From NCBI GenBank assembly GCA_965219085.1, contig OZ244720.1, positions 1,995,429 to 2,059,428 of the forward strand: a stretch of 64,000 bases of DNA. The letters are read 5' to 3'. Shown here piece after piece: positions 12,268-54,911 of the stretch (the first letter of the stretch is position 1; each line of letters starts with the position of its first letter). The DNA comes from Dehalococcoidia bacterium (GTDB lineage Bacteria > Chloroflexota > Dehalococcoidia > UBA2979). The notes under the pieces were generated by a model. That model worked only from the letters and a program-made list of their open reading frames with translations, had not been told where the DNA came from and did no database searches. Made by a program: the position numbers and the translations under genes.

Positions 12268-12273
12268 ACGGCC

Positions 12274-13056: not shown

Positions 13057-13138
13057 GCGTCATGCCCGGTATCGAACCCCGCTGAAAGGACCCTCGTGAC
13101 CCAGCCGCCGTTCCCACTCGCACGAATACCGCGGTGAA

Positions 13139-14251: not shown

Positions 14252-14255
14252 CGCC

Positions 14256-14556: not shown

Positions 14557-14936
14557 TGGCGGACCACGCACGCTACCTCGTCGAGGACGGCGACCTCGAG
14601 ATCAACGCCGGACGCCCGACGGTCACGCTGGCGGTCGCGAACTCCGGCGACCGCCCGATCCAGGTGGGATCGCACGCGCACTTCTTCGAGGTGAACCGCG
14701 CACTCCGCCTCGACCGCGCCGCCGCATTCGGGATGCGACTCGACATTCCCGCCGGCACGGCGGTTCGGTTCGAGCCGGGTCAGCAGCAGACCGTCACGCT
14801 CGTCGCCTTCGGCGGCGCACGACGGGCGCACGGCATGAACGCGCTTGTCGAAGGCTCCACCGACAGCGCCGACGTGCGCGCCGCCGCGCTCGCCCGCCTC
14901 GAGGAGCGCGGATTCAGCTCGGAGGCCCCGCGATGA
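14555..14936 (+). CDS. ureB: urease beta subunit
   Basis: ATG overlaps the ureA stop (TGATG); [54 protein letters not shown].. Confidence 0.85.
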
Positions 14937-26889: not shown

Positions 26890-26998
26890 CATTGACGGAA
26901 CGTATGGCGACGCAGGGACTTCGGACTCCCCTGTCGACTGAGAGCGACCGTCACTGCGCCCATACCGGCGGTGGCTCTGGCGCGGCTGTGCCGCGCCG

Positions 26999-28201: not shown

Positions 28202-28527
28202 CGCCCGACCTTAGCCCAAATCCACCGAAGGAGAGCGCGCGAGCACCTGCCACGCGTGTCCGGTAAGGCCTCAGTGAGAACCGCCGGTCTCGACGCCGCC
28301 AACGGTGCATCAGTGCGACGAGCGCGCCGAGCAACATGGGCCGTGGTCCCCGGCACAGTTCAACTCGCGCCTGTCACGCCCAGAGTGCGGACTCAGTTGC
28401 GGCCCGTCGCCACGGATTGGCACGGTCCTGCAATCAGCGGGCGGCGGCGATGGGGCTATGGGTCGCCGTTAGCGGCGTTTAGCCGCGGTGCCTTGCGGCG
28501 CGGGTGGCCGAAGCCCACACTGACGCC

Positions 28528-29219
<692 letters not shown>

Positions 29220-29223
<4 letters not shown>

Positions 29224-32433: not shown

Positions 32434-32625
32434 GTCGAGCCCATTATGTGCCAACGGCTGCCGGTGCGAGGGGCCGGGCGCGTTGACACGACGGCCATCG
32501 GTGCTACGATCCCTGCATTGTCGAGAAACTTGACCAGGTTTATCGACATTAGCCGGACAGGGCCCGGCCGACGCTGATGCTCGGGTGAGAAGCCCCGCGA
32601 CCGCCCGCTGAGGATGGAGTGCCCT

Positions 32626-34410
32626 ATGACCACCGCCACACGTACCGACCGCCCCGGCCGCGTGATCGCGATCCTCGAGGAGGAGTTCGAGGACTTCCGC
32701 ACGGAGGCCACCGAGTTCCTCGCCGAGAACCCCGAGGGCGACGACTTCACGAGGTTCCGCCTCCGCCAGGGCGTCTACGGCCAGCGCCAGCCGGACCGCC
32801 AGATGATGCGCGTGAAGCTGCCCTTCGGCGGCACCACGTCGGAGCAACTCGACGCATTCGCGGTCATCGCCGAGGACTACACGCCGCTGCGCAAGGGCCA
32901 CCTCACGACGCGCGAGGCGATCCAGCTCCACCACATCCCGCTCGAACGCACCCTCGACATCATGCAGATCCTCGGTGACGCCGGACTCTCGACCCGCGAG
33001 GCCTGCGGCAACACGGTGCGCAACGTCACCGGCGACGCGTGGGCGGGCATCCGCTCCGATGAGCCCTTCGACGTGTCGCCTTACGCGGGCGCCTTCGTGC
33101 GCTACTTCGTGCGCAGCGAGCTCACGCAGCTGCTGCCGCGCAAGTTCAAGGTCGCCTTCTCCGGCAGCGACGAGGACGCCGCCCTCACGCAGATCCACGA
33201 CATCGGCTTCATCCCCGAGATCCGCGAGGTCGACGGCGTGCCTACCAAGGGCTTCAAGATGGTCGCCGGCGGCGGCCTCTCGATCATGGCCCGCCACGCC
33301 GTCGTGCTGCGCGAGTGGGTCTCCGTCGACGACTACCTGAAGGTCTCCGAGGCGGTCCTGCGCATCTTCGACGCCGCCGACGAGCTGCGGAAGAACATCG
33401 CCAAGGCGCGCATCAAGTTCCTGGTCCACCGCGTGGGCGAGGAGGAGTTCCGGCGCATGGTCGACGAGGAGCTGGCGAAGGACTGGGCCGCCGACCGTGA
33501 CGCCTCGCCCGACCCGCTGCTGTTCCTCGACGACGAGGAGGCGGACGCCCCGCCCGCACCCACGAATCCCGAGCAGCCGACCGACGCCGACCGTGCGGCG
33601 TTCGAGGAGTGGGCGCGCACCGCGGTGCGCGCGCAGCGCCAGGCCGGTTACTCGGCGATCGAGGTGAAGGTGCCGGAGGGCGACCTCAACCCCGGGCAGT
33701 TCCGTGGCCTCGCGGCGCTGCTGCGCGAGTATGGCTCGGGCCGCGCGCGCACCACGCCGTGGCAGAACATCGTGCTGCGCTGGATCCCCGACGGCAGCGT
33801 CTACACCGTCTGGAAGGGGCTGTCTGAACTCGGCCTCGGTGATGCGGGCACCCTCGAGATCGAGGACGTGGTGAGCTGCCCCGGCACCGACAGCTGCAAG
33901 CTCGGCATCACCAGCTCGATGGGGCTGAACCGCGCGATCGCGGACCGCGTGCGCGAGATGGCGGTCACCGACCCGCTGACGCGGCGCATCCTCATCAACG
34001 CCAGCGGCTGCCCCAACTCGTGCGGGCAGCACCACATCGCGAACATCGGGTTCCACGGCGCCGCCATCAAGTCCGGCGCGCGCCAGGTGCCCGCCTACCA
34101 CGTCTTCGTCGGCGGCAACCGCCGCCCCGGCGCGGACCTCGAGCTCGGCACGCTGCTCAAGGTGCGGCTCCCCGCCAAGCGGGTCCCCGACGCCGTCGAG
34201 CGCTTCGTCCGGCTCTATGAGGCCGAGCGCGAGGACGGCGAGGAGTTCAACGAGTACTTCGGGCGCGTCGGCAAGCTGCACTTCGAGGACTCGGTGCGGG
34301 ATCTGACCCTGCCGCCGGAGTTCTCGCTCGACACCATGAACGAGTTCATCGACTGGGAGCGCGAGAGCATTTACGTCCTCGAACGTGGCGAGGGCGAATG
34401 CGCGGTCTAG
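32626..34410 (+). CDS. sirA: ferredoxin-dependent sulfite (or nitrite) reductase hemoprotein, SirA/NirA type
   Basis: Two nitrite/sulfite-reductase ferredoxin-like half domains; siroheme/4Fe-4S cysteines (..CPGTDSCKLG.. and ..GCPNSCGQH..). Confidence 0.8.
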   Translation: MTTATRTDRPGRVIAILEEEFEDFRTEATEFLAENPEGDDFTRFRLRQGVYGQRQPDRQMMRVKLPFGGTTSEQLDAFAVIAEDYTPLRKGHLTTREAIQLHHIPLERTLDIMQILGDAGLSTREACGNTVRNVTGDAWAGIRSDEPFDVSPYAGAFVRYFVRSELTQLLPRKFKVAFSGSDEDAALTQIHDIGFIPEIREVDGVPTKGFKMVAGGGLSIMARHAVVLREWVSVDDYLKVSEAVLRIFDAADELRKNIAKARIKFLVHRVGEEEFRRMVDEELAKDWAADRDASPDPLLFLDDEEADAPPAPTNPEQPTDADRAAFEEWARTAVRAQRQAGYSAIEVKVPEGDLNPGQFRGLAALLREYGSGRARTTPWQNIVLRWIPDGSVYTVWKGLSELGLGDAGTLEIEDVVSCPGTDSCKLGITSSMGLNRAIADRVREMAVTDPLTRRILINASGCPNSCGQHHIANIGFHGAAIKSGARQVPAYHVFVGGNRRPGADLELGTLLKVRLPAKRVPDAVERFVRLYEAEREDGEEFNEYFGRVGKLHFEDSVRDLTLPPEFSLDTMNEFIDWERESIYVLERGEGECAV

Positions 34411-34444
34411 CGCGATCACTACGCAGCATCGGAAAGGCGGCGGC

Positions 34445-35227
34445 GTGACGACATCAACGGGCGGGCACCAGGTGGTACGAGGCAGCAGGGGCGATGAGAC
34501 GCCGACCGGCCGCCTGGCCGTGCCCATCGACTATGCCGAGGCGGAGATCATCCGCGTCGCCAACGAGGAGCTCGATCGCGCCGGCCCCGGCGACATCCTC
34601 AGCTGGGCCGTCGACCGCTACGGCGAGGGCCTGACGCTGGCGTGCTCCTTCGGCGGCACGTCCGGGATGGCGCTGGTCGACATGGTGCAGCGCCTCCAGC
34701 CCTCGACCGAGGTGTTCTACATCGACACCGACTACCTGTTCCCGGAGACGCACGACACGATCCGGGCGGCACGGCTGCACTGGCCCAAGGTCAACATCGT
34801 CGGCTACGGTCCGGAGCTGACCACGGAGGGGCAGATCGAGCTGCACGGCCCCGCGCTGTGGGATCGCGACCCGGACCTCTGCTGCGACATCCGCAAGGTC
34901 GAGCCGAACCGCGAGGCCCTGCGCGGCAAGCGCGCATGGGTCTCCGGCCTCCGCCGCGACCAGACCGGCCGCGAGGAGACCCCGGCGGTGCAGTGGGATG
35001 AGAAGTTCGGGCTGGTCAAGGTCAACCCGCTCATCAACTGGAGCGAGAAGTTGCTCTGGTCGTACATCTTCGAGCGCGGGCTGCCCTACAACCTGCTCCT
35101 CGACCGCGGCTTCCCGAGCATCGGCTGCACGAACTGCACGCGCGCCATCCAGCCGGGCGAGGACCCGCGCGCCGGCCGCTGGTCGGGCTTCGACAAGCTG
35201 GAGTGCGGACTGCACACGACCTCCTGA
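34445..35227 (+). CDS. cysH: phosphoadenosine/adenosine phosphosulfate reductase (CysH, APS-reductase type with a C-terminal Cys cluster)
   Basis: PAPS-reductase fold motifs (..LACSFGGTSGMALVDM.., ..ECGLH); CC..C..C cluster (..DLCCDIR.., ..IGCTNCT..). Confidence 0.8.
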   Translation: MTTSTGGHQVVRGSRGDETPTGRLAVPIDYAEAEIIRVANEELDRAGPGDILSWAVDRYGEGLTLACSFGGTSGMALVDMVQRLQPSTEVFYIDTDYLFPETHDTIRAARLHWPKVNIVGYGPELTTEGQIELHGPALWDRDPDLCCDIRKVEPNREALRGKRAWVSGLRRDQTGREETPAVQWDEKFGLVKVNPLINWSEKLLWSYIFERGLPYNLLLDRGFPSIGCTNCTRAIQPGEDPRAGRWSGFDKLECGLHTTS

Positions 35228-41015: not shown

Positions 41016-41915
41016 TCAGTCCGCCTGCAGCTCCGCGAGGTAGTCCGCGGCGAAGCGCTGTGCCAGTTCCGGGGCATCCTCGAGCTGGCGCGGATGCAGC
41101 CCGATGATCGCGTGATTCACCCCCGACTCGCGCGCGGCGTGTAGGCGCTCGGCGGTCTGCTCCAGCCGGTCGGCCGCGAGCGCGCCGACGTTGTTCATCG
41201 CGATCATCAGCGCGGCCGGGTCGCGGCCGGCGCGCGAGGCCGCCTCGCGCGCTGGCGTCATCGCCTCCTCGGCGCGGTTGAGGTAGCCGGCGTGGGCGAG
41301 CCAGCCGTCGCCGAGCTCGCCGATGCGGCGCATCTGCTGGGGGCTGTCGCCGCCGATCCAGATCGGCAGGTGCCGCGGCGGCAGCGGGCGCGCGGTCCAG
41401 CCGTCGACGGTGTGGAACTCGGTCTCGAGGCCGTCCACCCACTCCTCGTCGAGCAGCGCGCGGATGACGCGCACGCTCGCCTCGAAGCGGTCACCGCGGC
41501 GGTTCGTGGGCATGCCGAGGACTTCCATCTCCTCGCGCGCCCAGCCCATGCCGGCGCCGAGCAGGAAGCGCCCGCCCGCGAGGTGGTCGATGCTCGCGAC
41601 CATCTTCGCCGTGTAGGCGGCGCTGCGGTAGTTGAGCACCAGCACGGAAGTGCCGAGCCCGATCGTGCTCGTCACGCCCGCGACGAACGTCAGCTCCGTC
41701 AGCGGCTCGATGATCGAGTGGTCGACGTACGTGCGGGGCGGCACGACGCCGTCGGGCGCGTACGGGTACGGCGAGCGCCACTCGCGCGGGAACATGACGT
41801 GGTCGTTGACCCACAGCGCGTCGTAGCCGGCGTCCTCCGCCGCGCGCGCATGCCGCAGCACGAGGTCGCGCGAAGCCGCTTCGCCGAGCTGTGGCAGTTG
41901 CACTCCTACCTGCAT
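41016..41915 (-). CDS. LLM-class (luciferase-like) flavin/F420-dependent oxidoreductase
   Basis: MQVGVQLPQLGEAASRDLVLRHARAAEDAGYDALWVNDHV.. is the typical LLM N-terminus; about 300 aa. Confidence 0.75.
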   Translation of the reverse strand: MQVGVQLPQLGEAASRDLVLRHARAAEDAGYDALWVNDHVMFPREWRSPYPYAPDGVVPPRTYVDHSIIEPLTELTFVAGVTSTIGLGTSVLVLNYRSAAYTAKMVASIDHLAGGRFLLGAGMGWAREEMEVLGMPTNRRGDRFEASVRVIRALLDEEWVDGLETEFHTVDGWTARPLPPRHLPIWIGGDSPQQMRRIGELGDGWLAHAGYLNRAEEAMTPAREAASRAGRDPAALMIAMNNVGALAADRLEQTAERLHAARESGVNHAIIGLHPRQLEDAPELAQRFAADYLAELQAD

Positions 41916-42114
41916 CACGCCTCCGTTCGCGTCGCGAGGAACGTATGGAGCGCGCGCGCCCGGCGTCAAGGCGTCCCCGCGAGCAATGCAAGCCCGAGCG
42001 CACGCCGCTACGATGCGCTCAGGCCGCACCCCGCGCTGTGGCTTCGGGCGCGCCGCGCGCACGGACCTCGCACGCGGGCGGCAGCGCGCGGCCACCTGGG
42101 GAAGGACGGATAGC

Positions 42115-42832
42115 GATGCACGAGGCGCTCACGGTGGAGAAGACTGGTGGGATCGCGACCTTCACGATCACGAGGCCGCGCGTCAACGCGCTCAGCCTCG
42201 ACCTCCTCGAATCGTTCGCCGAGGAGTTGCACAGCGCCGCCGACGATCCCGACATCATGGTCGCGGTGTGGCGCAGCGGCCTGCCGAACATCTTCTGCGC
42301 CGGCTTCGACCTCAACGACAGCGGCCCCAGTTCGGCGCACCACATGCCCGGCGAGCGCACCGTGCGCGTGCGCAACGCGCAGACGGCGCTGCTCGACATC
42401 CCGATCCCGATCATCGTGGCCGTGAACGGGCCGGCGGTCGGGCTCGGCCTGCTCATGCCGGCGCTGTGCGACATCGTGGTGGCCGGGCGCAGTGCGCGCT
42501 TCGGGCTGCCCGAGATCCAGATCGGCGCCATCGGCGGCGCCGGCCATGCGCGCCGCATCCTGCCCGAGCCCGTCCTGCGCTACATGATGCTGACCGGCCG
42601 CCGCGTCACGCCCGAGTACCTCCAGCAGTGCGGCGCGATCGCGCTCGTCGTCGACGACGACCAGCTCGAGGCGGAGACGATGGCGATCGCGCGCGAGATC
42701 ACGACCTACGACCCGGTGGTCGTCCGCAACAACAAGATCGCGCTGGAGATGCTGCGAGGCGTCGACGACGTCGCCACCGTGTACGCGATCGAGCACAAGT
42801 GGGGCGCGGCGATCCGCGCCTCCCGCGAGTAA
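42115..42832 (+). CDS. enoyl-CoA hydratase/isomerase (crotonase family)
   Basis: ..IATFTITRPRVNALSLDL.., ..IFCAGFDL.., ..IVAVNGPAVGLG.. crotonase signatures. Confidence 0.8.
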
Positions 42833-42844
42833 CGAGGAGCCTCG

Positions 42845-44080
42845 ATGCCGAAGGCCCTCGCGGGCTACCGCATCTGCGACTTCACCGGCCAGCTGGCGGG
42901 CGCCGGGGCGACGCGCCACCTCGCCGCGTTCGGCGCCGAGGTGATCCGTATCGAGGACCCCGTGAATGAGGGGCGCTGGGACATCCTCCGCGGCCAGCCG
43001 CCGTACGTGGATGAGCGCCGCGGGATCAACCTCGGCGGTTCGTTCAACAACCACAACGTGGGGAAGCTCGGCATCACGCTCAACCTCCGCACCGAGCGCG
43101 GCAAGGAGCTGCTGACCGAGCTGGTCAAGGCGTCCGACGTGGTATCGGAGAACTTCTCGGCAGGCGTGATGGACCGGCTCGGATTCGGCTACGAGCAGTT
43201 GCAGGCCATCAAGTCCGACGTCATCTACGTCTCGAACAGCGGCTTCGGGAAGCAGGGGCCGTACGGCACGTACAAGACGTGGGGCCCGATCGTGCAGGCG
43301 GTGGCCGGGCTCACGTGGACCTCGAAGCTGCGCGACCAGCCGCCGGCCGGGTGGGGTTACTCCTACATGGACCACACCGGCGGCTACTACATGTGCATCG
43401 CCATCCTCGCCGCGCTGCATCACCGCAACGTCACCGGCGAGGGCCAGTGGGTCGACATGTCCTGCACCGACGCGGGCGCGACGCTGACCGGCCCCGCGAT
43501 CCTCGACTACACCGTCAATGGCCGCCCGACGCGCCGTGACGGCCTGCCCGACTCGAACCACAACCGCTGGCCCGCGATGGCCCCGCACGCCGTCTACCCA
43601 GCCGAGGGGGAGGACAACTGGATCGCCATCGCCTGCCGCGACGAGGCGGACTGGCACGCGCTGACCGCCGAGGTCGCCGAGCCGTGGACCGCCGACCCGC
43701 GTTTCGCGACCCTCGACGACCGTATCGAGCACGAGGCGGCGCTCGACGAGGCATTGGGCGGCTGGACTGCGTCGCGCGAGGCGTTCGCCACGGCTGAGCG
43801 CCTCCGCGCGGCGGGCGTGCCCACCTCGGCGGTCGCGCGCCCCGAGGACCGCATCGACCACGACGAGAACACGAGCGCGTGGGGGCTGTGGCCGGAGGTG
43901 CGGCAGACCGACATGGGCGCGGTGCGCGTCGATGGCGTGCCCGCGCACCTGAGCGAGACCGAATGGGAGCTCGGACGCGGCGCACCGAACCTCGGCGAGC
44001 ACAACGAGGAGGTCTACGGCGGACTGCTCGGCCTCGACGTCGGCGAGATCGCGAGCCTGCGCGAAGAGGGCGTGATTTGA
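42845..44080 (+). CDS. family-III CoA-transferase
   Basis: ..LAGYRICDFTGQLAGAGATRHLAAFGAEVIRIE..; 411 aa. Confidence 0.85.
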   Translation: MPKALAGYRICDFTGQLAGAGATRHLAAFGAEVIRIEDPVNEGRWDILRGQPPYVDERRGINLGGSFNNHNVGKLGITLNLRTERGKELLTELVKASDVVSENFSAGVMDRLGFGYEQLQAIKSDVIYVSNSGFGKQGPYGTYKTWGPIVQAVAGLTWTSKLRDQPPAGWGYSYMDHTGGYYMCIAILAALHHRNVTGEGQWVDMSCTDAGATLTGPAILDYTVNGRPTRRDGLPDSNHNRWPAMAPHAVYPAEGEDNWIAIACRDEADWHALTAEVAEPWTADPRFATLDDRIEHEAALDEALGGWTASREAFATAERLRAAGVPTSAVARPEDRIDHDENTSAWGLWPEVRQTDMGAVRVDGVPAHLSETEWELGRGAPNLGEHNEEVYGGLLGLDVGEIASLREEGVI

Positions 44081-44097
44081 CCGGCCCGAACGCTCCG

Positions 44098-45330
44098 ATG
44101 GGACCGATGCACGGCCTGCGCGTGATCGAGCTGTGCGAGGAGATCGGCGAGTTCGCCGGCAAGCTCCTCGCCGACATGGGCGCCGACGTCGTCAAGATCG
44201 AGCCGCCCGGCGGCTCGCGCACGCGCTCCTACGCGCCATTCCTCGACGACGTTCCGCACCCCGACCGCAGCCTCTTCTTCTGGCACTACAACACCAGCAA
44301 GCGCTCCGTCGCGCTCGACCTCGACGGCGAGGTGGGGCGCGAGGCGTTCCGCAAGCTCGTGGCCGGCGCCGACGTGCTCGTCGAGGACCGCGCGCCCGGC
44401 TGGCTGGCGGAGCGTGGCCTCGACTACGAGGACCTGCGCGGCGGCAACCCCGGCCTGATCCACTGCGCGATCACGCCCTTCGGGCGCTCCGGCCCGCGCG
44501 CAGGCGACCCCGCGACGGACCTCACGATCCTCGCGGGGGCCGGGCCTGCCTGGTCATGCGGCTACGACGACCACTCGATCCCGCCCGTGCGCGGCGGCGG
44601 CAACCAGGGCTACCAGACAGGCTGCCACTGGGCGCTGATCAGCATCCTCACCGCCGTGCTCTACCGCGACGGCGGCGGCGCGGGCCAGTTCATCGACGTG
44701 AGCCTGCACGCCGCCTCGAACGTCACGACCGAGGCGGGCAGCTACCAGTGGCTCGTCGCGCGTGAGACCGTGCAGCGCCAGACCGGACGCCACGCCGGCG
44801 TGACGCCCTCGGGGCCGACGCAGGTACAGGCGAAGGACGGCGTATGGATGAACACCGGGCTGTTCCCGCGCCGCCCGCACGAGTTCCGCATCCTCATCGA
44901 CTGGATGCAGGAGCTCGGCCTGTTCGACGAGTACGAGCAGTCGCCGCTGCTCGAGACGGCCGCCGGCATGGATCGCATGCTCGATATGGCCCGCGCCGCC
45001 GAGGACGAGGAAGAAGCAGCGCTCCTGAGCGCGGGCCGTGAGGCGATGATCTTCCTCGTGCAGCGCCTCGACGCCTACGAGTTCTTCTCGGGCGCGCAGG
45101 AGCGCGGCTTCCAGGTCGGCATCATCTACGCACCCGAGGACGTGATCGAAGACCCGCACTTCGTCGCACGAGGCTTCCCGACGGAGGTCGAGCACCCGGA
45201 ACTGGGCCGCTCGTTCGTCTACCCCGGCGCGCCGTACGCCTTCCGCGGCTCGCCGTGGGCGATCACGCGCCGCCCACCACTGCCCGGCGAGCACACCGCG
45301 GAGGTGCTCGCCCAACTCGACAGCGCCTGA
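44098..45330 (+). CDS. family-III CoA-transferase
   Basis: ..MHGLRVIELCEEIGEFAGKLLADMGADVVKIEPP..LPGEHTAEVL.. Confidence 0.85.
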   Translation: MGPMHGLRVIELCEEIGEFAGKLLADMGADVVKIEPPGGSRTRSYAPFLDDVPHPDRSLFFWHYNTSKRSVALDLDGEVGREAFRKLVAGADVLVEDRAPGWLAERGLDYEDLRGGNPGLIHCAITPFGRSGPRAGDPATDLTILAGAGPAWSCGYDDHSIPPVRGGGNQGYQTGCHWALISILTAVLYRDGGGAGQFIDVSLHAASNVTTEAGSYQWLVARETVQRQTGRHAGVTPSGPTQVQAKDGVWMNTGLFPRRPHEFRILIDWMQELGLFDEYEQSPLLETAAGMDRMLDMARAAEDEEEAALLSAGREAMIFLVQRLDAYEFFSGAQERGFQVGIIYAPEDVIEDPHFVARGFPTEVEHPELGRSFVYPGAPYAFRGSPWAITRRPPLPGEHTAEVLAQLDSA

Positions 45331-45340: not shown

Positions 45341-47872
45341 ATGACCGCATCACCCACGACCAACGGACAGGCCAGGCCCCTCGCGGGCATTCGCGTGCTC
45401 GACCTCGCCACCGGCTACTGCGAGATCACCGGTCGGCTGCTCGCCGACATGGGCGCCGAGGTGATCAAGATCGAGCCGCCCGGCGGACACCCCTCGCGCC
45501 GTCATCCGCCGTTCGTCGACGGCCGCGAGGGCGAGCTCGCCGGCTCGCTGCACTGGGCCGCCTACGCCATCGGCAAGCGCAGCATCGTGCTCGACCTCGA
45601 CGACGAGGTCGACCGCGCGCGGCTGCGCGAGCTCGCGCGCGGCGCCGACGTGCTCGTGGAGTCGCTCGAGCCGGGCGCGCTCGACGCGCTGGGGCTCGGC
45701 TACGCGGACCTGGGCGCGCTCAACCCCGCGTTGGTCTACGCCTCGATCAGCCCGTTCGGGCAGAGCGGCCCGCACGCGCACCGGCCGGCCACCGACCTCA
45801 CGTTGCAGGCAGCGGGTGGGCTCGTCTCGATGCAGGGCGACCGCGACCGGCCGCCGATCCCCGTCGGCTTCCCGCAGGCTGGCCTGCACGCGGGCGTGCA
45901 GGCCGCCGCCGACATCGTCGTCGCGCTGAATGAGCGCGACCACTCCGGGCTCGGCCAGCACCTCGACACCTCGATGCAGGCGTGCATCGTGTGGACGCTG
46001 CTCGACGCGACCGGCTACCCGCCGAACGAGGGCGGCGACAAGCCCGGCTACGGCGACGACCGCTCCAACCCCGTCCCGCGTCGGACGCCCGGGCTCGACT
46101 TGCCGACCATGCTCGAGGTGGCCGACGGGTACACGACGAGCTCGATGGGCGCCGGCCCGCAGATGACGAACACCGTGAACCAGGCCGTTGCCTGGATGCT
46201 GCGAGACGGCCCCGGGTTCCCCGAACACCTCCGCGGCATCGACTGGCAGCACTGGCACGAGGACTGGGCAGAGCCCGGCGTTGCGCCCGAGAGCGCGCCG
46301 CTGGTGAACGAGGCGCTCCAGCACGTCCTCGCCTTCCTGCGCTCCAGGACAAAGGCCGAGCTGCACCCGTGGTCGCTCGAGAGCAAGGCGCTCGTCGCGA
46401 AGATCGCGACGGCCAGGGACCTGCTCGAAGACCCGCAGCTCGAGGCGCGCGACTACTGGCAGCAAGTCGGCGGGCACACCGTGCCCGGCCCCTTCGTGCG
46501 CCTCTCGCGCACGCCGATCGGCTCGGTCGAGCCTGCTCCGGCGCTCGGCGACGGCGCTGCGCTCCTCGACACGCCGCGCGCGCTGGCCGTCAACGGCGCG
46601 CGATCCTCGAACGGCTCGACCACCCCGGACGGCTCGACCACCTCGGACGGCCGGGGCGGGCGGCGCCCGCGGACGTTCGAGGGGCTGAAGGTCGCCGACT
46701 TCTCGTGGTACGGCGTGGGGCCGCTCATCGCCAAGGCGCTCGCGGATCACGGGGCGACGGTGGTGCACGTGGAGTCCGAGCGGCACTTCGACGGCCTGCG
46801 CCTGGGGCCGCCATTCAAGGACGGCGAGTTCGACATCAACAAGGCGCAGTTCTTCGCCGACTACAACTCCTCGAAGCTCGGCATGTCGATCGACCTCTCG
46901 CACGAGGTCGGCCGTGAGATCGCGCGCGACCTCACGCAGTGGGCTGACGTCATGGTGGAGAGCTTCACGCCCGACACGATGGAGCGTCACGGCCTCGACT
47001 GGGCCGTGCTCGGCCCCGACCACCCCGACCTCATCATGGTCCGCACCTGCCTCCGAGGGCAGACCGGGCCGGAGCGCCGCTACACGGGCTTCGGCATGCA
47101 GGGCGCGGCACTGGCCGGGCTCCACGCCGTCACCGGCTGGGCGGACCGCCCGCCCGCCGGCCCGTACGGCGCGTACACCGACTTCATCAACCCGCGCTTC
47201 GGGCTCCTCGCCGTCGCGTCCGCGATCTACGAGCGGCGTCGCAGCGGCAGGGGACAGCTCATCGACCTCTCGCAGGGCGAGGCGGCGATCCACTTCGCCG
47301 CGCCGCTCGTGCTCGACTACGCCGCGAACGGCCGCGTCGCCGGACCCGCCGGTCACGACTCGATGACCGACGCGCCGAACGGCGTCTACGCCTGCCGCGG
47401 CGTCGAGCGCTACGTCGCCATCTCGTGCGCGACGACCGGGCAGTGGCGCGCACTGCGCGACCTCGCCGGCCTCGAGGGCTTCGATGGGGTGGAGTACGAG
47501 ACGTACGCGGGCCGGCAGGCCGACCGTGCGCGCATCGACGCCGCACTCGCGGCGTGGTGCGCGGACCAGGACGGGCACGAGCTGGCGGCGCGGCTCGCCG
47601 ACGCGGGCGTGCCCGCCTCGGCGGTGCTGCGCGCGACGGACCTCTACGAGGACGCGCAGCTCGCGCACCGCGGCTTCTTCGTGACGCTCGACCACCCGGC
47701 GATGGGCCCGACGCCGTACGACGGCCTCGCGACGCAGTACTCGGGATCGCCCGGCAGGCTCAGCAAGGCCGCGCCGATGTTCGGCGAAGACACGCACTAC
47801 GTGCTGACCGAGCTGCTCGGCGCGAGCCCCGAGGACGCGGCGCGCTTCGCTGAGAGCGGCGCGCTCACGTAG
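45341..47872 (+). CDS. single-chain tandem fusion of two family-III CoA-transferase domains (843 aa)
   Basis: Domain 1 ..LAGIRVLDLATGYCEITGRLLADMGAEVIKIEPP..; linker NGARSSNGSTTPDGSTTSDGRGGRRP, encoded by an 18-bp tandem repeat; domain 2 ..LKVADFSWYGVGPLIAKALADHGATVVHVE..; continuous frame, no stop. Confidence 0.85.
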   Translation: MTASPTTNGQARPLAGIRVLDLATGYCEITGRLLADMGAEVIKIEPPGGHPSRRHPPFVDGREGELAGSLHWAAYAIGKRSIVLDLDDEVDRARLRELARGADVLVESLEPGALDALGLGYADLGALNPALVYASISPFGQSGPHAHRPATDLTLQAAGGLVSMQGDRDRPPIPVGFPQAGLHAGVQAAADIVVALNERDHSGLGQHLDTSMQACIVWTLLDATGYPPNEGGDKPGYGDDRSNPVPRRTPGLDLPTMLEVADGYTTSSMGAGPQMTNTVNQAVAWMLRDGPGFPEHLRGIDWQHWHEDWAEPGVAPESAPLVNEALQHVLAFLRSRTKAELHPWSLESKALVAKIATARDLLEDPQLEARDYWQQVGGHTVPGPFVRLSRTPIGSVEPAPALGDGAALLDTPRALAVNGARSSNGSTTPDGSTTSDGRGGRRPRTFEGLKVADFSWYGVGPLIAKALADHGATVVHVESERHFDGLRLGPPFKDGEFDINKAQFFADYNSSKLGMSIDLSHEVGREIARDLTQWADVMVESFTPDTMERHGLDWAVLGPDHPDLIMVRTCLRGQTGPERRYTGFGMQGAALAGLHAVTGWADRPPAGPYGAYTDFINPRFGLLAVASAIYERRRSGRGQLIDLSQGEAAIHFAAPLVLDYAANGRVAGPAGHDSMTDAPNGVYACRGVERYVAISCATTGQWRALRDLAGLEGFDGVEYETYAGRQADRARIDAALAAWCADQDGHELAARLADAGVPASAVLRATDLYEDAQLAHRGFFVTLDHPAMGPTPYDGLATQYSGSPGRLSKAAPMFGEDTHYVLTELLGASPEDAARFAESGALT

Positions 47873-47972
47873 CAGGCCGCCCATGGACGCCCTGTCTACA
47901 ATCGGGGCGGCCGGACGCGTCGCGCCGCAGCGGACGCGGCGGGCAGGCGAAGGAGGACCCGTGGCGGAGACG

Positions 47973-49133
47973 ATGCGAGGGAAGACGGCGATCGTCGGTC
48001 TCGCCGAGACCACCTACTACAGGCGCGGTGGCGCCGAGGACGCCGAGTTCAAGCTCGGCCTCCAGGCCGTGCAGGCGGCCGCCGAGGACGCCGGCATCGA
48101 CGTCCGCGACATCGACGGCTTCTGTTCCTACAGCAATGACCGCAACGACCCGACGCGCTTCCATTCCGCGCTCGGCCTGCGGGACCTCAAGTGGTCCTCG
48201 ATGGTCTGGGGCGGTGGTGGCGGCGGCTGCGCGGGCGCCGTCGCGATGGCCGCCGCGGCGGTACACGCCGGGATCGCGACGAACGTCGTGGTCTTCCGCG
48301 CGCTCGCGCAGGGCCAGTTCGGGCGCTTCGGCGCCGCGAGCGCGTCCGGGCCGCTGGAGGGCGCGCCCGCGTACACGCAGCCGTTCGGGCAGATGTCGCC
48401 GGCGCAGTCGTACGCGATGAAGGTCACGCGCTTCATGCACGACCACGGCGTGCAGCAGAGCGCGCTGCGCGCCGTCTCGCTCGCGAGCTACTACCACGCC
48501 CAGCGCAACCCGCGCGCCGTCATGTACGGCCGCCCGCTCGACGAGGAGCGCTACGACAACTCGCGCTGGATCGTCGAGCCGTTCCACCTCTACGACTGCT
48601 GCCAGGAGAACGACGGCGCCGCCGCGGTCATCGTGACCACGGCCGAGCGCGCCCGAGACATGAAGAATAAGCCCGTCTACATCCTCGCCGGTGGGCAGGG
48701 CTCGCAGTACCGGCAGTCGGCGTGGGCGCACAACGCACCCGACTACGGCACCTCGAACTTCAAGAACAACGCGGCCTCGCTGTTCGACATGGCGCAGGTC
48801 AAGCCCGAGGAGGTCGACGTCGCGCAGGTCTACGAGAACTTCACCGGCGGCGTCGTGATGAGCATCGTCGAGCACGGCCTCATCCCCGTGGAGCAGGCCA
48901 ACGAGGAGTTCACGCTCGACAACTTCCGGTTCGACGGCGGCAAGCTGCCGCTCAACACCTCGGGCGGCAACCTCGCCGAGTGCTACATGCACGGCTTCGA
49001 GCTGGTGATCGAGGCGGCGCGGCAGGTCCGCGGCGAGTCGACCGCGCAGGTCGACGACCCGGAGATCTCGCTCGTCGCGGGCGGGCCGATGGTCGAGCCG
49101 ACGAGCAACCTGCTGCTCGGCGCGCAGGTCTAG
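47973..49133 (+). CDS. thiolase-like protein, SCP-x / lipid-transfer-protein type
   Basis: ..AIVGLAETTYYRRGG..; thiolase fold without the classic biosynthetic-thiolase signatures; C-terminal ..NTSGGNLAECYMHGFE.. typical of SCPx/Ltp thiolases. Confidence 0.8.
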   Translation: MRGKTAIVGLAETTYYRRGGAEDAEFKLGLQAVQAAAEDAGIDVRDIDGFCSYSNDRNDPTRFHSALGLRDLKWSSMVWGGGGGGCAGAVAMAAAAVHAGIATNVVVFRALAQGQFGRFGAASASGPLEGAPAYTQPFGQMSPAQSYAMKVTRFMHDHGVQQSALRAVSLASYYHAQRNPRAVMYGRPLDEERYDNSRWIVEPFHLYDCCQENDGAAAVIVTTAERARDMKNKPVYILAGGQGSQYRQSAWAHNAPDYGTSNFKNNAASLFDMAQVKPEEVDVAQVYENFTGGVVMSIVEHGLIPVEQANEEFTLDNFRFDGGKLPLNTSGGNLAECYMHGFELVIEAARQVRGESTAQVDDPEISLVAGGPMVEPTSNLLLGAQV

Positions 49134-49147: not shown

Positions 49148-49618
49148 ATGGCGAACGCAACCAAAGCCGACGTCGAGGCGGGCGGCAGCTACTTCCCGAC
49201 GGCCGTCGCCCTCCCGGTGGCGATGGTGGATGGCCTCGACGCGCCGCACTACGAGGGCAAGGAGCGCGGCGAGCTGTGGGTGCAGTACTGCACCGCCTGC
49301 GAGGCGCACCAGTGGGGCCCCGAGTGGATTTGCCACCGCTGCCTCGGCTACGACCTTGAGTGGCGGCAGGTGGCGGCCGAGGGCCGGATCTTCTCGTGGG
49401 AGCGGATCTGGCACCCCGTCCACCCCGACCTCGCCGAGGCGGTGCCGTACGTCGTGGTGCTGATCGAGCTCCCGCACGCGGACGACATCCGCATGGTCGG
49501 CAACCTCCTCGGCGACCCCGAGGAGGAGATCGTCATTGGTTCGGAGGTCGAGGCGGTGTTCGAGCACCACCCTGATCACGATCCGGCCTACACTCTCGTG
49601 CAGTGGTCCCGGACGTAG
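49148..49618 (+). CDS. DUF35 protein (rubredoxin-like Zn ribbon plus OB fold), partner of SCP-x thiolases
   Basis: CTACEAHQWGPEWICHRCLG Zn ribbon followed by an OB-fold segment; immediately downstream of the thiolase-like gene. Confidence 0.8.
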   Translation: MANATKADVEAGGSYFPTAVALPVAMVDGLDAPHYEGKERGELWVQYCTACEAHQWGPEWICHRCLGYDLEWRQVAAEGRIFSWERIWHPVHPDLAEAVPYVVVLIELPHADDIRMVGNLLGDPEEEIVIGSEVEAVFEHHPDHDPAYTLVQWSRT

Positions 49619-49707: not shown

Positions 49708-50868
49708 ATGGACTTCGAGATGCCGGCGGAGGTGCTCGACTTCCGCAAGCAGGTGCAGGACTTCATCGCCTCGCACCGCACACCCGAACTCGACGCCGAG
49801 ATCGCCGAGAGCCACATCCACGGCTACGGCCCCGCGTCGCAGGGCTTCATGCGCGCGATGGCGCAGGAAGGCCTCGCCGCCGTCGCATGGCCCGAGGAGT
49901 ACGGCGGCCAGGGCAAGGGCGCGCTCTTCCTGTGGACCCTCGCCGAGGAGTGCGCGCGTGAGGACGTGCCGTTCGACAACCTCACCTTCATCTCCGTCGG
50001 CCCGAGCATCATGCGCAACGGCACGGAGGAGCAGAAGCAGGAGATCCTCCCCAAGGTGCTCAGGGGCGAGATCAACTTCGCCCTCGGATACACCGAGCCG
50101 AACGCCGGCACCGACCTCGCCTCGCTACAGACGCGCGCCGTCCGCGACGGCGACGAGTGGGTGATCAACGGGCAGAAGATCTACACCTCGTCTGCCCACC
50201 TCGCGACGCACGTCTGGCTCGCGGCGCGGACCGAGCCGGATGCGCCGAAGCATCGCGGCATCTCGACCTTCGTGCTGCCGCTCAACACCCCCGGCATCAC
50301 CGTTCGCCCGCTGTGGATCATGGGCGAGGGCCGCACCAACGAGACCTTCTGGGAGGACGTGCGTATCCCCGCCGACTCGCTGATCGGCGAGGAGAACCGC
50401 GGCTGGTACATCGTCAGCGGCGCTCTCGACCTCGAGCGTGTGGCCATCGGCACCTACCGCCCGCTCGAGAAGACGGTCGAGGACATGGTGGCGCACATCA
50501 AGGAGGCGCGGCCCGAGCTCCAGGACGACGCCTTCGCCCGCCAGGCGGTGGCCGACGCGCTCATGCGCGTCGAGGTCGCCCGCGCGCTCGCGACGAACAA
50601 CGCCGCGATGGTGCACAGCGACCTGATCCCGACGATGGAAGCCTCGATGGGCAAGGTCTGGACGACGGACTCCCGCGAGCGCGTGAACGACGCCTTCATG
50701 GACATCCTCGGCCGCACCGGCGGGATGCAGGCCGGCGTCGAGGACGCCCCGCTCGACGGCGCGCTCGATGCGGCGTGGCGCGGTTCCCCGGTGGGACGTT
50801 TCGGCGGAGGCACCAACGACATCCAGCGGCGCATCATCGCGACCCGCGGCCTCGGGCTGCCTCGCTAG
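49708..50868 (+). CDS. acyl-CoA dehydrogenase (first of an adjacent pair)
   Basis: 386 aa; ..YGGQGKGALF.., ..NGQKIYTSSAH.., C-terminus ..IQRRIIATRGLGLPR. Confidence 0.85.
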   Translation: MDFEMPAEVLDFRKQVQDFIASHRTPELDAEIAESHIHGYGPASQGFMRAMAQEGLAAVAWPEEYGGQGKGALFLWTLAEECAREDVPFDNLTFISVGPSIMRNGTEEQKQEILPKVLRGEINFALGYTEPNAGTDLASLQTRAVRDGDEWVINGQKIYTSSAHLATHVWLAARTEPDAPKHRGISTFVLPLNTPGITVRPLWIMGEGRTNETFWEDVRIPADSLIGEENRGWYIVSGALDLERVAIGTYRPLEKTVEDMVAHIKEARPELQDDAFARQAVADALMRVEVARALATNNAAMVHSDLIPTMEASMGKVWTTDSRERVNDAFMDILGRTGGMQAGVEDAPLDGALDAAWRGSPVGRFGGGTNDIQRRIIATRGLGLPR

Positions 50869-50877
50869 GAGGACGAC

Positions 50878-51951
50878 ATGGATATCCGTCTCAGCGAGCT
50901 GCAGGAGTTGCTCCGCACCAACGCGCAGGAGTTCTTCGAGCGCGAGGTCACCTTCGAGCGCATCCGCGAGATCGAGGCAGCCGACACGCCCGACATGCAA
51001 CTGTGGGACCAGATGGTCGAGCTCGGCTGGACCTCGCTGCCCATCGCCGAGGAGTACGGCGGTCAGGGCGGCACCCTGCTCGACACCTCGATCCTCGTCA
51101 ACGAGGCCTGCCGCGCCGCCTTGCCGAGCCCCTTCACCTCGACGCTGATCGCGGCCGTTGCCGTGCAGCGCCACGGCTCCGAGGACCTCAAGCAAGCTCT
51201 GCTGCCGCGCCTCGCCGACGGCCTCGCGATCTCCTCGGCGGTGCTCGAGGCCGACGACGCCATCTACGGCGAACCGCAGACGACGTCCGACGGCTCGACC
51301 GTCAGCGGCGAGAAGCGCTTCGTCGAGTTCGGCGCGACGAGCGACGTGCACCTGGTCACGGCGACGCGTAACGGCTCGCAGGGCATCGCGGTGGTGTCGC
51401 GCGACCAGGCCGGCGTGGAGCTGTCGCCCGTCCAGACGATCGGCGCGATTCCCCAGGCCCACGTCCGCTACGACGGCGCCGCCGTCGACGGCTGGATCGA
51501 GGGCGCGGAGGCCGTCGATGGCCTGCGCGACCTCGGCACGGCGCTCACGGCGTTCGAGGCCTACGCGTACGCGCAGAAGGCGCTCGACCTCACCATCGAC
51601 TACGTGCAGCTGCGCGTCCAGTTCGGCCAGCCGCTCGGCGCGTTCCAGGCGGTGCAGATGCACTGCGCCGACATGGCGACGCTCGTCGAAGGCTCGCGCT
51701 TCCTCGCGCAGGAGCTGCTATGGAACCTCGACCAGGGCGAGGTGACGCGCCGCGACGTGGCGATCGTGAAGGCGATCACCTCGAAGATGGCGCCGCAGGT
51801 GCTGCAGGACTGCCACATGCTGCACGGCGGCATCGGCTACATGCAGGAGTACGACCTGCACTTCTTCACGCGGCGCGGCAAGGAAGCCTCGCTGCGCTGG
51901 GGCTCCGCCCGCGAGGCGATGAACGTCGTCGTGGACGCCGCCTTCGCGTAG
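50878..51951 (+). CDS. acyl-CoA dehydrogenase-fold protein (second of the pair, shorter, possible beta subunit)
   Basis: 357 aa; ACAD fold (..EEYGGQGGTLLD.., ..MLHGGIGYMQEYDLHFFTRR..); 9-bp spacing from the upstream ACAD gene. Confidence 0.75.
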   Translation: MDIRLSELQELLRTNAQEFFEREVTFERIREIEAADTPDMQLWDQMVELGWTSLPIAEEYGGQGGTLLDTSILVNEACRAALPSPFTSTLIAAVAVQRHGSEDLKQALLPRLADGLAISSAVLEADDAIYGEPQTTSDGSTVSGEKRFVEFGATSDVHLVTATRNGSQGIAVVSRDQAGVELSPVQTIGAIPQAHVRYDGAAVDGWIEGAEAVDGLRDLGTALTAFEAYAYAQKALDLTIDYVQLRVQFGQPLGAFQAVQMHCADMATLVEGSRFLAQELLWNLDQGEVTRRDVAIVKAITSKMAPQVLQDCHMLHGGIGYMQEYDLHFFTRRGKEASLRWGSAREAMNVVVDAAFA

Positions 51952-53711: not shown

Positions 53712-54911
53712 TCAGGCGACGACGCCCCTCGCCTTGAGCGCCGCGATCGACTCGGCGGACTCGCCGAGCTCGGCGAGCACCTCGTCGGTGTGCCGGCCGA
53801 GGTGCGCAGGGGCGCTGCGCACGTTGCCCGGTGTGCCCAGCAGCTTCGGCGCGACGCCGACGTGGCGCACGGTCCCCGCGCCCACGCCCTCGCCCTCCAC
53901 CTCGATCGCCATCTCGCGCTCCCGCTGGTGGGGGTCGTCGAGCATCTCGTCGAGGTCGAGCACGGGCGTCAGGCATGCGTCGAGGTGGCCGAAGTCGGCG
54001 AACCACTCGTCGCGCGGGCGTTCGCGGAAGCGTGCTGCGAAGGCGGCCTGCATCCCGGCCTGGCGGTCGGGATCGTTCTGGTGCGGGACGAACTCCTCGA
54101 AGCCGAGCGCCTTGCACAGCTCCTCGAAGAAGTAGGGCTCGATCGCGCCGACGCTGATCCAGCGGCCGTCGGCGCACTCGTAGACCTGGTAGTAGCAGCG
54201 CGCGCCGGCGAGCGTGTGGTCGCCGCGGCGCGGCGGCCCGGCCCCGGCGAGCATCGTCGCGACGTGCGAGATCATGAGCGAGGCGACGCCGTCCGACATC
54301 GCGGCGTCGACGTCCTGGCCGTGGCCGGTGCGCTCGCGCGCCTGTAGCGCGAGCACGATGCCGAACGCGGCCATCAGCCCGCCGCCGGCGAAGTCGGCGA
54401 TGATGTTGAGCGGGATCACCGGGTCGCCCTGCACGTTCCCGATCGACCCGAGCGCGCCGCCGATCGAGATGTAGTTGATGTCGTGCCCGGCGCGCGGCTC
54501 ATATGGTCCGGTGCGCCCGAAGCCCGACACCGAGCACGTGATGATGCGCGGGTTGATAGCCTCGAGGCTCGCGTAGTCGATGCCGAGGCGGTTCGTGACG
54601 CCCGGCCGGAAGCCGTCGATGACCACGTCGGAGCGCTCGACCAGGGCCCGGAAGATGCGCTGGCCGTCCTCGTCGCGGAGGTTGATGGCTGTGCCGCGCT
54701 TGTTGCGCCGGATCGCGTCGTGGGCGAGCGCGCGCGCCGCCTCCTCGGTCTCGGGCGCGCCGGCGCGCACGTTGAAGCGGGCGACGGCGCCCGGCGGCAC
54801 CTCGACCATGAACACGTCGGCGCCGAAGTCGGCGAGAAGCATGGAGGCGTACTGGCCGGGCGGGGTGCGGGACAGGTCGAGGACGCGAACGCCCTCCAGC
54901 GCCATGGTCAT
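53712..54911 (-). CDS. mcr: alpha-methylacyl-CoA racemase (family-III CoA-transferase fold)
   Basis: ..GHDINYISIGGALGSIG.., ..PLNIIADFAGGGLMAAFGIVLAL.., ..YYQVYECADGRWISVGAIEPYFFEEL.., ..FADFGHLDACLTPVLDLDEM.. match Mcr-type racemases. Confidence 0.8.
   Translation of the reverse strand: MTMALEGVRVLDLSRTPPGQYASMLLADFGADVFMVEVPPGAVARFNVRAGAPETEEAARALAHDAIRRNKRGTAINLRDEDGQRIFRALVERSDVVIDGFRPGVTNRLGIDYASLEAINPRIITCSVSGFGRTGPYEPRAGHDINYISIGGALGSIGNVQGDPVIPLNIIADFAGGGLMAAFGIVLALQARERTGHGQDVDAAMSDGVASLMISHVATMLAGAGPPRRGDHTLAGARCYYQVYECADGRWISVGAIEPYFFEELCKALGFEEFVPHQNDPDRQAGMQAAFAARFRERPRDEWFADFGHLDACLTPVLDLDEMLDDPHQREREMAIEVEGEGVGAGTVRHVGVAPKLLGTPGNVRSAPAHLGRHTDEVLAELGESAESIAALKARGVVA

Follow-up and report, generated by a model that had tools for sequence, protein, structure and literature searches.

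How two family III CoA-transferase domains come to lie in one reading frame, and whether the product is a covalently linked pseudo-heterodimer, is the question raised by a gene in the window, the 64,000-nucleotide stretch of Dehalococcoidia DNA analysed here. The answer depends on which half carries the active site, on the origin of the segment that joins the halves, and on how the protein relates to the stand-alone family III genes nearby and to fused proteins already described. The best explanation as a whole, to which we assign a probability of about 0.72, is a single-chain BbsE/BbsF-type CoA-transferase with one C-terminal active site that feeds a beta-oxidation-type operon. The parts of the gene are as follows.

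45341-47872, + strand: fused two-domain family III CoA-transferase gene, a single ORF with an ATG start, 843 aa
45341-46576, + strand: N-terminal A-type domain (aa 1-412), BbsEF chain A-like, without the catalytic Asp and with the upstream 'TDL' Asp152 kept
45881-45883, + strand: Gly181 codon, the N-half counterpart of the catalytic Asp (degenerate site), placed by the 4ed9 alignment, column counts and a paralogue alignment
46577-46663, + strand: inter-domain linker (aa 413-441), rich in Ser/Thr/Gly/Asn and predicted to be disordered (pLDDT, alignment)
46613-46648, + strand: two 18-bp tandem units within the linker, encoding GSTTPD and GSTTSD (Tandem Repeats Finder)
46664-47869, + strand: C-terminal B-type domain (aa 442-843), BbsEF chain B-like, predicted to be catalytic
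47180-47182, + strand: Asp614 codon ('AYTDF'), predicted catalytic nucleophile by alignment to 'NYTD178HV' of 9fn0_B

The uninterrupted ORF holds two full-length PF02515 domains, and the claim of the sequence-only reading that two complete family III domains share one 843-aa frame was thereby borne out. Pfam matched CoA_transf_3 (PF02515) in two stretches (E = 1e-156, 522 bits against a gathering cutoff of 23.3), the best of which spans aa 447-818 and profile positions 2-366 of 366. Each half matches a different chain of the solved structure of BbsEF, the benzylsuccinate CoA-transferase, which is a succinyl-CoA-dependent heteromeric family III enzyme (PMC10818641). The N-half corresponds to chain A (9fn0_A, E = 7e-38 over aa 15-380; Foldseek TMt 0.78-0.88 to 9fn0_A/9fol_A) and the C-half to chain B (9fn0_B, E = 1.5e-75 over aa 4-393 of the half, 36% identity; Foldseek TMt 0.94-0.95 and rmsd 1.6-1.8 A to BbsEF structures). 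The motif pattern follows the same division: the CoA-accepting Asp (D178 = D614) is confined to the chain-B type, and the upstream 'xDL' Asp to the chain-A type.

The residue equivalent to Asp169 of Frc and CaiB, and to D178 of BbsEF chain B, is thus present in the C-half and absent from the N-half, where Gly181 takes its place. D614 is invariant in 49/49 orthologues, position 181 is Gly, Ala or Ser and never acidic in the 49 sequences, and 38 of 39 fused relatives, drawn from many phyla, have the catalytic Asp in their C-terminal domain. The worry that the second half might lack the catalytic Asp region can be set aside, D614 being in place; it is the first half that is without a catalytic Asp. 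The upstream 'GYD'-motif Asp was also considered as the nucleophile, in which case the C-half would be inactive, and was rejected because the title of PDB entry 9fol refers to a D178-CoA adduct and, when residues are counted along the 9fn0_B alignment, chain B D178 falls on D614; both point to the downstream Asp. Frc, CaiB, YfdW/YfdE, SUGCT and MCR have the same fold (TMt 0.8-0.9) and the same catalytic Asp position, but they are symmetric homodimers with two identical sites, whereas the fused protein is an asymmetric chain with one.

The AF2 model of the 843-aa protein forms one compact body (pLDDT 90.2, pTM 0.93), with pLDDT below 50 limited to aa 1-8 and 420-439. With a pTM of this order over the full length, the two halves are confidently predicted to be held in a fixed arrangement. 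From the pTM and what is known of the family, we infer an interlocked topology in which the halves pair within one chain and not by domain swapping between chains, and the intramolecular pairing fits with orthologue linkers as short as 10-14 aa. Since one gene contains two complete paralogous subunit types that are predicted to pack against each other, the proposal of a covalently linked pseudo-heterodimer is supported. The fused gene joins two different subunits of a benzylsuccinate-CoA-transferase-like enzyme and has a single active site.

The N-half is constrained nearly as strongly as the C-half. Its mean pairwise identity in the orthologue alignment is 56%, with 54 invariant columns, close to the 63% of the C-half, and Gln179 and His183, which flank position 181, are invariant across the 49 orthologues. 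As judged from these alignments, this constraint hints at a role beyond scaffolding. One version of such a role is that both halves are catalytic, the N-half acting through another nucleophile or base (e.g. Asp/Glu152 or His183), so that the protein would have two different active sites, for example for a donor and a second acceptor. The strong purifying selection over the 54 invariant columns would be expected under this scheme, as would the N-terminal Rossmann-type motif that the N-half retains and the acidic residue found at position 152 in 47/49 orthologues, and some distant fused proteins (10/39) have, in both domains, an acidic residue in the catalytic column or adjacent to it. Against it, two orthologues have Ser at position 152, every member of the clade of the window gene lacks an acidic residue at position 181, and the titles of the BbsEF PDB entries mention the D178 adduct only. 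To our knowledge, there is no family III enzyme that uses another nucleophile, and a second catalytic half is considered unlikely. A broader scenario, which we advance tentatively, would have the two-domain class originate on several occasions, each time from neighbouring genes in A-then-B order that fused, with the one true site in the C-terminal domain; in the Chloroflexota-centred clade to which the window gene belongs, the pseudo-active site of the N-half, with its invariant Gln179 and His183, may then have gained a binding or catalytic role of its own, much as DddD has an additional lyase activity.

The genes around the fusion bear on what the enzyme may act on. Apart from the stand-alone family III genes at 42845-45330, described below, the co-directional run comprises the following.

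42116-42832, + strand: enoyl-CoA hydratase of the crotonase family, first gene of the run (PF00378, E = 1e-36); syntenic in the loci L081 and L082
47883-49133, + strand: SCP-x/lipid-transfer-type thiolase-like protein, BbsB/Ltp-like (PF22691)
49148-49618, + strand: DUF35/ChsH2 protein with OB-fold and zinc ribbon, BbsA-like (PF01796, PF12172)
49708-51951, + strand: two adjacent acyl-CoA dehydrogenase (ACAD) genes (49708-50868 and 50878-51951), kept beside the fused gene in L081 and L082

The operon is of beta-oxidation type and resembles the bbs operon, with BbsA-, BbsB-, BbsG- and BbsH-like genes; an SDR, the equivalent of BbsCD, is absent from it. The thiolase-like protein scores 66 bits against a BbsB equivalog cutoff of 750 and 343 bits with NCBIfam PRK07855, under the cutoff of that family, and the NCBIfam scan reached no equivalog cutoff and gave no equivalog-level assignment. 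The operon is identical around the 81% orthologue, and its core (enoyl-CoA hydratase, fused gene, DUF35 protein and two acyl-CoA dehydrogenases) is kept around the 67% orthologue. Around the more distant fused relatives L004-L008 and L083 the context is not kept, and it was rejected as a general feature of fused relatives, being confined to the clade at 67% identity or more. For this reason, inference about the substrate is limited to the close clade. The close orthologues carry Chloroflexota/Dehalococcoidia names, which makes benzylsuccinate itself a very unlikely substrate. BbsEF further differs in consisting of two separate polypeptides, to which the fused protein is only about 26-36% identical; the latter may be taken to work like a BbsEF-type enzyme but, being encoded by a single ORF, is not a two-subunit member of the group.

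The fused architecture itself, the novelty of which was implied in the sequence-only reading, turned out not to be new. A 2018 paper catalogued 2,401 two-domain CoA-transferases and placed the catalytic Asp in their C-terminal domain (PMC6006322). Two-domain CoA-transferases are a known and very widespread class, and the fused gene is an uncharacterised member of it and not a discovery. Going by published descriptions, it is like DddD and PtmU4 in its tandem family III domains, its length (some 800 aa), its weakly conserved linker and its C-terminal catalytic Asp (PMC6006322). These enzymes belong to DMSP catabolism or to a thioacid cassette, whereas a beta-oxidation module surrounds the fused gene. 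A DddD-like bifunctional enzyme, combining CoA transfer with a lyase-type or other second reaction on the CoA-bound substrate, is somewhat less probable still than two catalytic halves. The strongly conserved pseudo-site of the N-half (invariant Q179 and H183) could serve a second activity, and Chloroflexota (SAR202) CoA-transferases have been reported with DddD as their best Swiss-Prot match (PMC5395668). However, DddD is reported to branch outside all remaining two-domain proteins (PMC6006322); the closest solved relatives of the fused protein are the BbsEF chains, and its operon is a beta-oxidation module and not one for DMSP. The NCBIfam and Pfam scans gave no match to a DddD-specific family, and tblastn of plasmids returned mostly single-domain matches, none of which was named dddD among the 40 records listed. 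A PtmU4-like sulfur transferase, forming a thioacid from an acyl-CoA and a sulfur-carrier protein, is highly improbable, given that thioacid-group members come only from Actinobacteria, Beta- and Gammaproteobacteria (PMC6006322), so that the group lies outside the phylum of the fused gene and its close Chloroflexota/Dehalococcoidia orthologues, and that the seven flanking genes of the co-directional run include hydratase, thiolase-like and ACAD genes instead of any match to an acyl-CoA synthetase or sulfur-carrier family.

The single-chain BbsE/BbsF-type reading also has to accommodate the separate family III genes of the window, which were proposed as possible unfused equivalents of the fusion.

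24362-26889, + strand: stand-alone pair of a B-type gene (24362-25633) followed by an A-type gene (25630-26889), with a 4-nt overlap
42845-44080, + strand: separate B-type subunit of family III that has the catalytic Asp in 'SYMDH' and has lost the upstream Asp
44098-45330, + strand: separate A-type subunit of family III that keeps 'TDL' and lacks the catalytic Asp (9fn0_A, E = 9e-54)

Both pairs are present as described, the stop codon of the A-type gene at 44098-45330 ending 10 nt ahead of the start of the fused gene, and the A and B motifs of the split subunits complement each other just as those of the fused halves do. The equivalence itself did not hold, and the pairs were likewise rejected as precursors of the fusion: their gene order (B then A) is opposite to that of the fused halves, their identity to the matching halves is only 28-34%, and they fall in a clade distant from the fusion in a neighbour-joining tree (no support values). 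Closer unfused pairs, in A-then-B order, occur in other genomes. Among cultured organisms in the plasmid collection, the best match comes from plasmid 2 of Aromatoleum aromaticum EbN1, as a split A-then-B homologue 35.5% identical over 90% of the query. This pair lies beside UbiD/UbiX genes, in what its analogous parts list suggests may be a locus for phthalate degradation; the fused gene differs in being unsplit and in having beta-oxidation genes around it in place of a UbiD-type decarboxylase.

The linker is the most variable part of the protein, with a mean pairwise identity of 22%, where the domains on either side reach 56% and 63%. It measures 29 aa here against an orthologue median of 14 (range 10-30 aa, none without a linker). 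That it is encoded in part by an 18-bp tandem repeat in two copies was confirmed by Tandem Repeats Finder (46611-46651, 18-bp period, 2.3 copies, 95% matches, score 75), the first unit being GGCTCGACCACCCCGGAC at 46613-46630 (GSTTPD) and the second GGCTCGACCACCTCGGAC at 46631-46648 (GSTTSD). By our estimate, fewer than 1e-3 adjacent 18-mer copies with at most one mismatch are expected in 64 kb. Between this gene and that of a 95%-identical orthologue there is a clean indel of 18 bp, exactly one repeat unit, and a 91% orthologue has a different in-frame linker indel. On this comparison of orthologues, the repeat reflects a recent duplication of one unit that is private to this gene and contributes to the unusual length of the linker. 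The suggestion that the linker arose by slippage of the repeat was not upheld, since every orthologue has a linker and the repeat is an insertion private to this gene; replication slippage would instead have added a unit to a pre-existing linker, with no evident functional role.

A repeat at the junction also bears on the integrity of the frame. GC3 is 0.87-1.00 per 90-nt block of the fused gene, in one frame throughout, and 0.90-0.97 across the inter-domain junction with the frame unchanged; since it is uniform in a single frame, there is no sign of the hidden frameshift or missed stop between the halves that had been raised as a concern. Fused orthologues, which the sequence-only reading had proposed to look for in relatives, are plentiful: the same single ORF of 800-847 aa recurs full-length in more than 120 independent protein clusters, and 37/80 genome loci were confirmed as single ORFs. 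The recurrence in so many independent clusters, from different assemblies and phyla, means that the fused ORF is not an assembly artefact. The explanation that survives least well, namely that the organism really makes two subunits and its adjacent A and B genes were merged when the low-complexity repeat was wrongly sequenced or assembled, can draw on the slippage-prone repeat and on the split A-then-B pairs, abutting or overlapping by a few bases, that are common in other genomes, but is already effectively refuted by the steady GC3 through the junction, the recurrent single ORF, the exclusively in-frame linker indels (18 and 12 bp) of close relatives, and a junction without the start codon or domain N-terminus layout typical of a separate gene.

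Taken as a single-chain BbsE/BbsF-type enzyme, the protein would combine, in one covalent chain, an A-type subunit devoid of the nucleophilic Asp and a B-type subunit that has kept it as Asp614. Joined by a short, disordered and fast-evolving linker, the domains would fold against each other into the pseudo-dimer that the family fold requires, so that each chain has a single catalytic site. If the reaction follows that of Frc, CaiB and BbsEF, it would proceed via an Asp614-acyl anhydride and an Asp614-CoA thioester. CoA would be moved onto a carboxylic acid from a donor thioester, probably succinyl-CoA, the donor of the two characterised heteromeric relatives, BbsEF and the BbsEF-like family III enzyme PhtSa/PhtSb (bioRxiv 10.1101/2022.07.29.502009). 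The activated acid would then be degraded by the products of the co-transcribed beta-oxidation-type genes. In a genome with several competing A and B paralogues, fusion may serve to fix a 1:1 stoichiometry and the correct A:B pairing.

The significance of these findings is modest, and current understanding is not overturned. The two-domain class is very large and almost entirely uncharacterised, with only DddD and PtmU4 studied, and it is expanded in Chloroflexota/Dehalococcoidia, lineages that are discussed for the degradation of recalcitrant organic matter. Mapping each half onto a chain of the recently released BbsEF structure provides a structural and mechanistic template, with a single C-terminal active site and an N-terminal pseudo-subunit, for annotating the whole class. 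As natural single-chain counterparts of an interlocked heterodimer, with linkers down to 10 aa, these proteins are convenient for expression and engineering, and they offer test cases for the folding of entangled proteins.

The fused CoA-transferase gene is part of a tightly packed run of co-directional genes and is separated from its neighbours by 10 nt on either side.

Genes of the run and the repeat within the fused gene (window coordinates, strand, description)
42116-42832, +, enoyl-CoA hydratase, first in the run
42845-44080, +, stand-alone B-type subunit, second in the run
44098-45330, +, stand-alone A-type subunit, directly before the fused A-B gene
45341..47872, +, fused two-domain CoA-transferase ORF, ATG start, 843 aa
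46611-46651, tandem repeat, 18-bp period, 2.3 copies, 95% matches, score 75 (Tandem Repeats Finder)
47883-49133, +, SCP-x-type thiolase-like protein, directly after the fused gene
49148-49618, +, DUF35/ChsH2-OB protein, after the thiolase-like gene
49708-50868 and 50878-51951, +, two adjacent acyl-CoA dehydrogenases (ACADs) ending the run; the middle domain of the second is weak

Pfam detected PF02515 (CoA-transferase family III) twice in the fused protein, with 522 bits in total, the second stretch (aa 447-818) spanning profile positions 2-366 of 366. In this window of 70% G+C, all 90-nt blocks along the whole ORF, those at the junction included, had a third-position G+C of 0.87-1.00 in its frame, which gave no hint of a hidden frameshift or missed stop. 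The single gene, two domains and repeat-encoded linker described in a sequence-only reading were each found in place by ORF analysis, coding signal, Pfam and Tandem Repeats Finder.

The title of PDB entry 9fol, 'BbsEF, D178-CoA adduct', identifies D178 as the CoA-accepting residue of benzylsuccinate CoA-transferase, and counting residues along the alignment of the C-half with chain B of the related entry 9fn0 places it in chain B ('NYTD178HV'). The C-half motif 'AYTD614F' aligns with this segment, and D614 also with the Asp in 'AFADIFTG' of 4ed9; D614 is invariant (49/49 orthologues), whereas its N-half counterpart, position 181, is Gly in 20, Ala in 14, Ser in 11 and another non-acidic residue in the rest. 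The N-half, which matched 9fn0_A over aa 15-380 (E = 7e-38), retains an upstream Asp in 'ATD152LT' (Asp/Glu in 47/49, Ser in 2/49), and the corresponding C-half position is an invariant Gly585. That this upstream 'GYD'-type Asp is the nucleophile and the C-half is dead was rejected on the basis of the 9fol title and the placement of D178. The same division is seen in separate subunits: 9fn0_A ('GSDLT ... NQAYRMAE') has no Asp at the nucleophile position, and among the window's stand-alone genes 'xDL' is retained but the nucleophile missing in the A-type members (44098-45330 and 25630-26889), while 'Y(M/L)DH' is present but the upstream Asp missing in the B-type members (42845-44080 and 24362-25633). 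In the genome scan, the catalytic Asp was in the C-terminal domain of 38/39 fused ORFs, and in 28/39, including every member of the window clade, the N-terminal counterpart of this residue was non-acidic; only one ORF, at 611-3307 of locus L073, was reversed, a B-A fusion with the catalytic Asp in its N-terminal domain. This one-sided pattern supports an A-B pseudo-heterodimer with one predicted nucleophile per chain.

An AlphaFold2 model built from a 49-sequence alignment had a mean pLDDT of 90.2 and a pTM of 0.93, with pLDDT below 50 only at aa 1-8 and 420-439. In Foldseek superpositions, TMt was 0.94-0.95 for the C-half on 9fn0_B/D (rmsd 1.6-1.8 A, 36% identity) and 0.78-0.88 for the N-half on 9fn0_A/9fol_A. 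The best single-chain match spanned only half of the fused protein (TMq 0.46); since the pTM reached 0.93 despite this, the model is confident in how the halves sit against each other, as one pseudo-dimeric body. Interlocked-ring topology is characteristic of family III, as known from the Frc and CaiB structures, and by extension from the family we infer that the fused chain would adopt it. The covalent pseudo-heterodimer proposed in the sequence-only reading is supported by the different subunit types of the two halves, their complementary Asp pattern and the confident model; that reading would have been undermined by a second half devoid of the catalytic Asp region, but the C-half carries D614 and it is the N-half that lacks the Asp.

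The degenerate N-half site (P-Q179-A-x-x-H183-A-G, aa 179-184, window 45875-45892) is itself conserved. Gln179 and His183, beside the lost-Asp position 181, are invariant (49/49), and His183 also persists in more distant fused relatives, unlike BbsEF chain A and the window's stand-alone A-type subunits, which have no equivalents of either residue. The nucleophile-less N-half is constrained nearly as much as the catalytic C-half (56% vs 63% mean pairwise identity).

Poor conservation is confined to the linker (22% mean pairwise identity), which is bounded by 'PAPALGE..LL' at the C-terminal end of domain A and by 'R..FEGLKVAD' where domain B begins, and which is 10 to 30 aa long across orthologues (median 14; 29 aa in the window protein). 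The full repeat units GGCTCGACCACCCCGGAC and GGCTCGACCACCTCGGAC (46613-46648) encode GSTTPD and GSTTSD. This duplication is private to the window sequence: P0001 (the 95% orthologue) has one copy, its gene differing from the window gene by precisely one unit, a clean 18-bp gap, and P0002 (91%) has another arrangement, with a different in-frame indel at the site that leaves it 12 bp shorter. The repeat therefore reflects recent slippage lengthening an existing, length-tolerant linker. The suggestion that slippage had created the linker is not supported, given the orthologue linkers and this private one-unit insertion; the repeat generated neither linker nor fusion.

The nearby stand-alone pairs had been suggested as possible unfused equivalents of the fusion, which is not supported. 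Both are ordered B then A, against A then B in the fusion, their subunits share only 28-34% identity with the corresponding halves, and in a neighbour-joining tree of B-type domains, without support values and indicative only, the window's B-type paralogues fall in a distant clade. Split A-then-B pairs, abutting or overlapping by a few bases, are common elsewhere (e.g. Binatia loci L020-L031, Dehalococcoidia L009 and L021) and reach 199-238 bits against the N-half and 308-339 bits against the C-half, above the 93-150 and 165-198 bits, respectively, of the paralogues in the window itself. In the same unsupported tree, the window protein sits inside a large all-fused clade and fused and split forms are interspersed deeper down, which suggests several fusion or fission events. 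After the second pair (B-type 24362-25633 and A-type 25630-26889, overlapping by 4 nt) comes an acyl-CoA dehydrogenase in convergent orientation (26999-28201, -), and the three genes make up another small CoA-activation and oxidation module (24362-28201). A sixth family III gene (53712-54911, -, 399 aa, syntenic in the 81% relative L081) has both motif Asps and is apparently of the symmetric one-domain type; its 'AGHDINYISIGG' motif is typical of alpha-methylacyl-CoA racemases.

Searching a 5.8-billion-protein collection (E <= 1e-20) with the fused protein recovered 2,463 proteins. Among the best 120 clusters, nearly all were 800-847 aa with 97-100% query coverage and 95% down to 50% identity; named entries were 'CoA transferase' or 'CaiB-like', from Chloroflexota, Dehalococcoidia and Tepidiformaceae MAGs and a few Alphaproteobacteria. 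GTDB representative genomes gave 593 candidate stretches coding for relatives; at the 80 loci kept, ~37 had a true single two-domain ORF (in Chloroflexota, Acidimicrobiales, Pseudomonadales, Myxococcota, Mycobacterium, Entotheonella and others) and ~43 had two adjacent genes. The recurrence of the single chain in so many clusters and genomes shows it to be an old, widespread and selected architecture and rules out an assembly artefact. One Dehalococcoidia genome (L014) carries two two-domain genes back to back (10001-12403 and 12402-14864), and the reversed fusion of L073 comes from another. The novelty implied by the sequence-only reading cannot be maintained, as Dong et al. (PMC6006322) had already described two-domain family III proteins, 2,401 of them from a 2017 database search. 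All three descriptive features of that class (tandem domains, poorly conserved linker, C-terminal-domain Asp) are present here, and the fused protein is an uncharacterised addition to it. Earlier, the SAR202 genome paper (PMC5395668) observed that DddD is the best match of some of the expanded Chloroflexota CaiB/BaiF paralogues. No paper in the searchable literature, whose scope did not extend to the BbsEF structure paper, was found to assign the two domains explicitly to BbsE-type and BbsF-type subunits; the BbsEF PDB entries were released only in December 2025.

A luciferase-like flavin monooxygenase (41016-42095, -) lies divergently beside the operon, also in L081, and similar genes occur near family III pairs at loci L026, L027, L034, L046, L069 and L074, echoing the joint FMNO and CaiB/BaiF expansions of SAR202 Chloroflexota (PMC5395668). 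An OmpR-type response regulator (28504-29223, +) and sulfite/nitrite reductase followed by PAPS reductase genes (assimilatory sulfate reduction, 32614-35227, +) are unrelated to the fused gene.

The operon is identical in L081. L082 (67%) has no split pair but retains the enoyl-CoA hydratase, the fused gene, DUF35 and both ACADs, the ACAD pair adjoining the fused gene as in L081. Ahead of its DUF35 gene, two small MaoC/hotdog-like genes (FAS1_DH_region, 10515-11515) take the place of the thiolase-like gene, suggesting that the pathway here is a variant of hydratase/aldolase type. This context is lost at 52% identity (L083) and around more distant fused relatives. The run has the parts list of the bbs operon (benzylsuccinate beta-oxidation, PMC10818641) except for the SDR, also resembles steroid side-chain modules, and its ACAD pair is reminiscent of heteromeric alpha2beta2 steroid-type ACADs (ChsE/FadE pairs). 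No NCBIfam equivalog cutoff was reached. Among cultured organisms in the plasmid collection, Aromatoleum aromaticum EbN1 gave the best match, a split, BbsEF-like A-then-B pair on its plasmid 2 (L086, record 66351-70366, 4-nt overlap). Genes for UbiX and a UbiD-family decarboxylase immediately precede this pair and TRAP transporters are close by, a parts list matching the anaerobic o-phthalate activation and decarboxylation cluster of Azoarcus sp. PA01. The two characterised heteromeric relatives, BbsEF (PMC10818641) and the homologous phthalate enzyme PhtSa/PhtSb (bioRxiv 10.1101/2022.07.29.502009), both activate a dicarboxylic acid with succinyl-CoA, and by analogy succinyl-CoA is most likely the donor here. 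The best inference is that the fused enzyme would transfer CoA onto a carboxylic acid, the activated acid then feeding the adjacent beta-oxidation-type enzymes.
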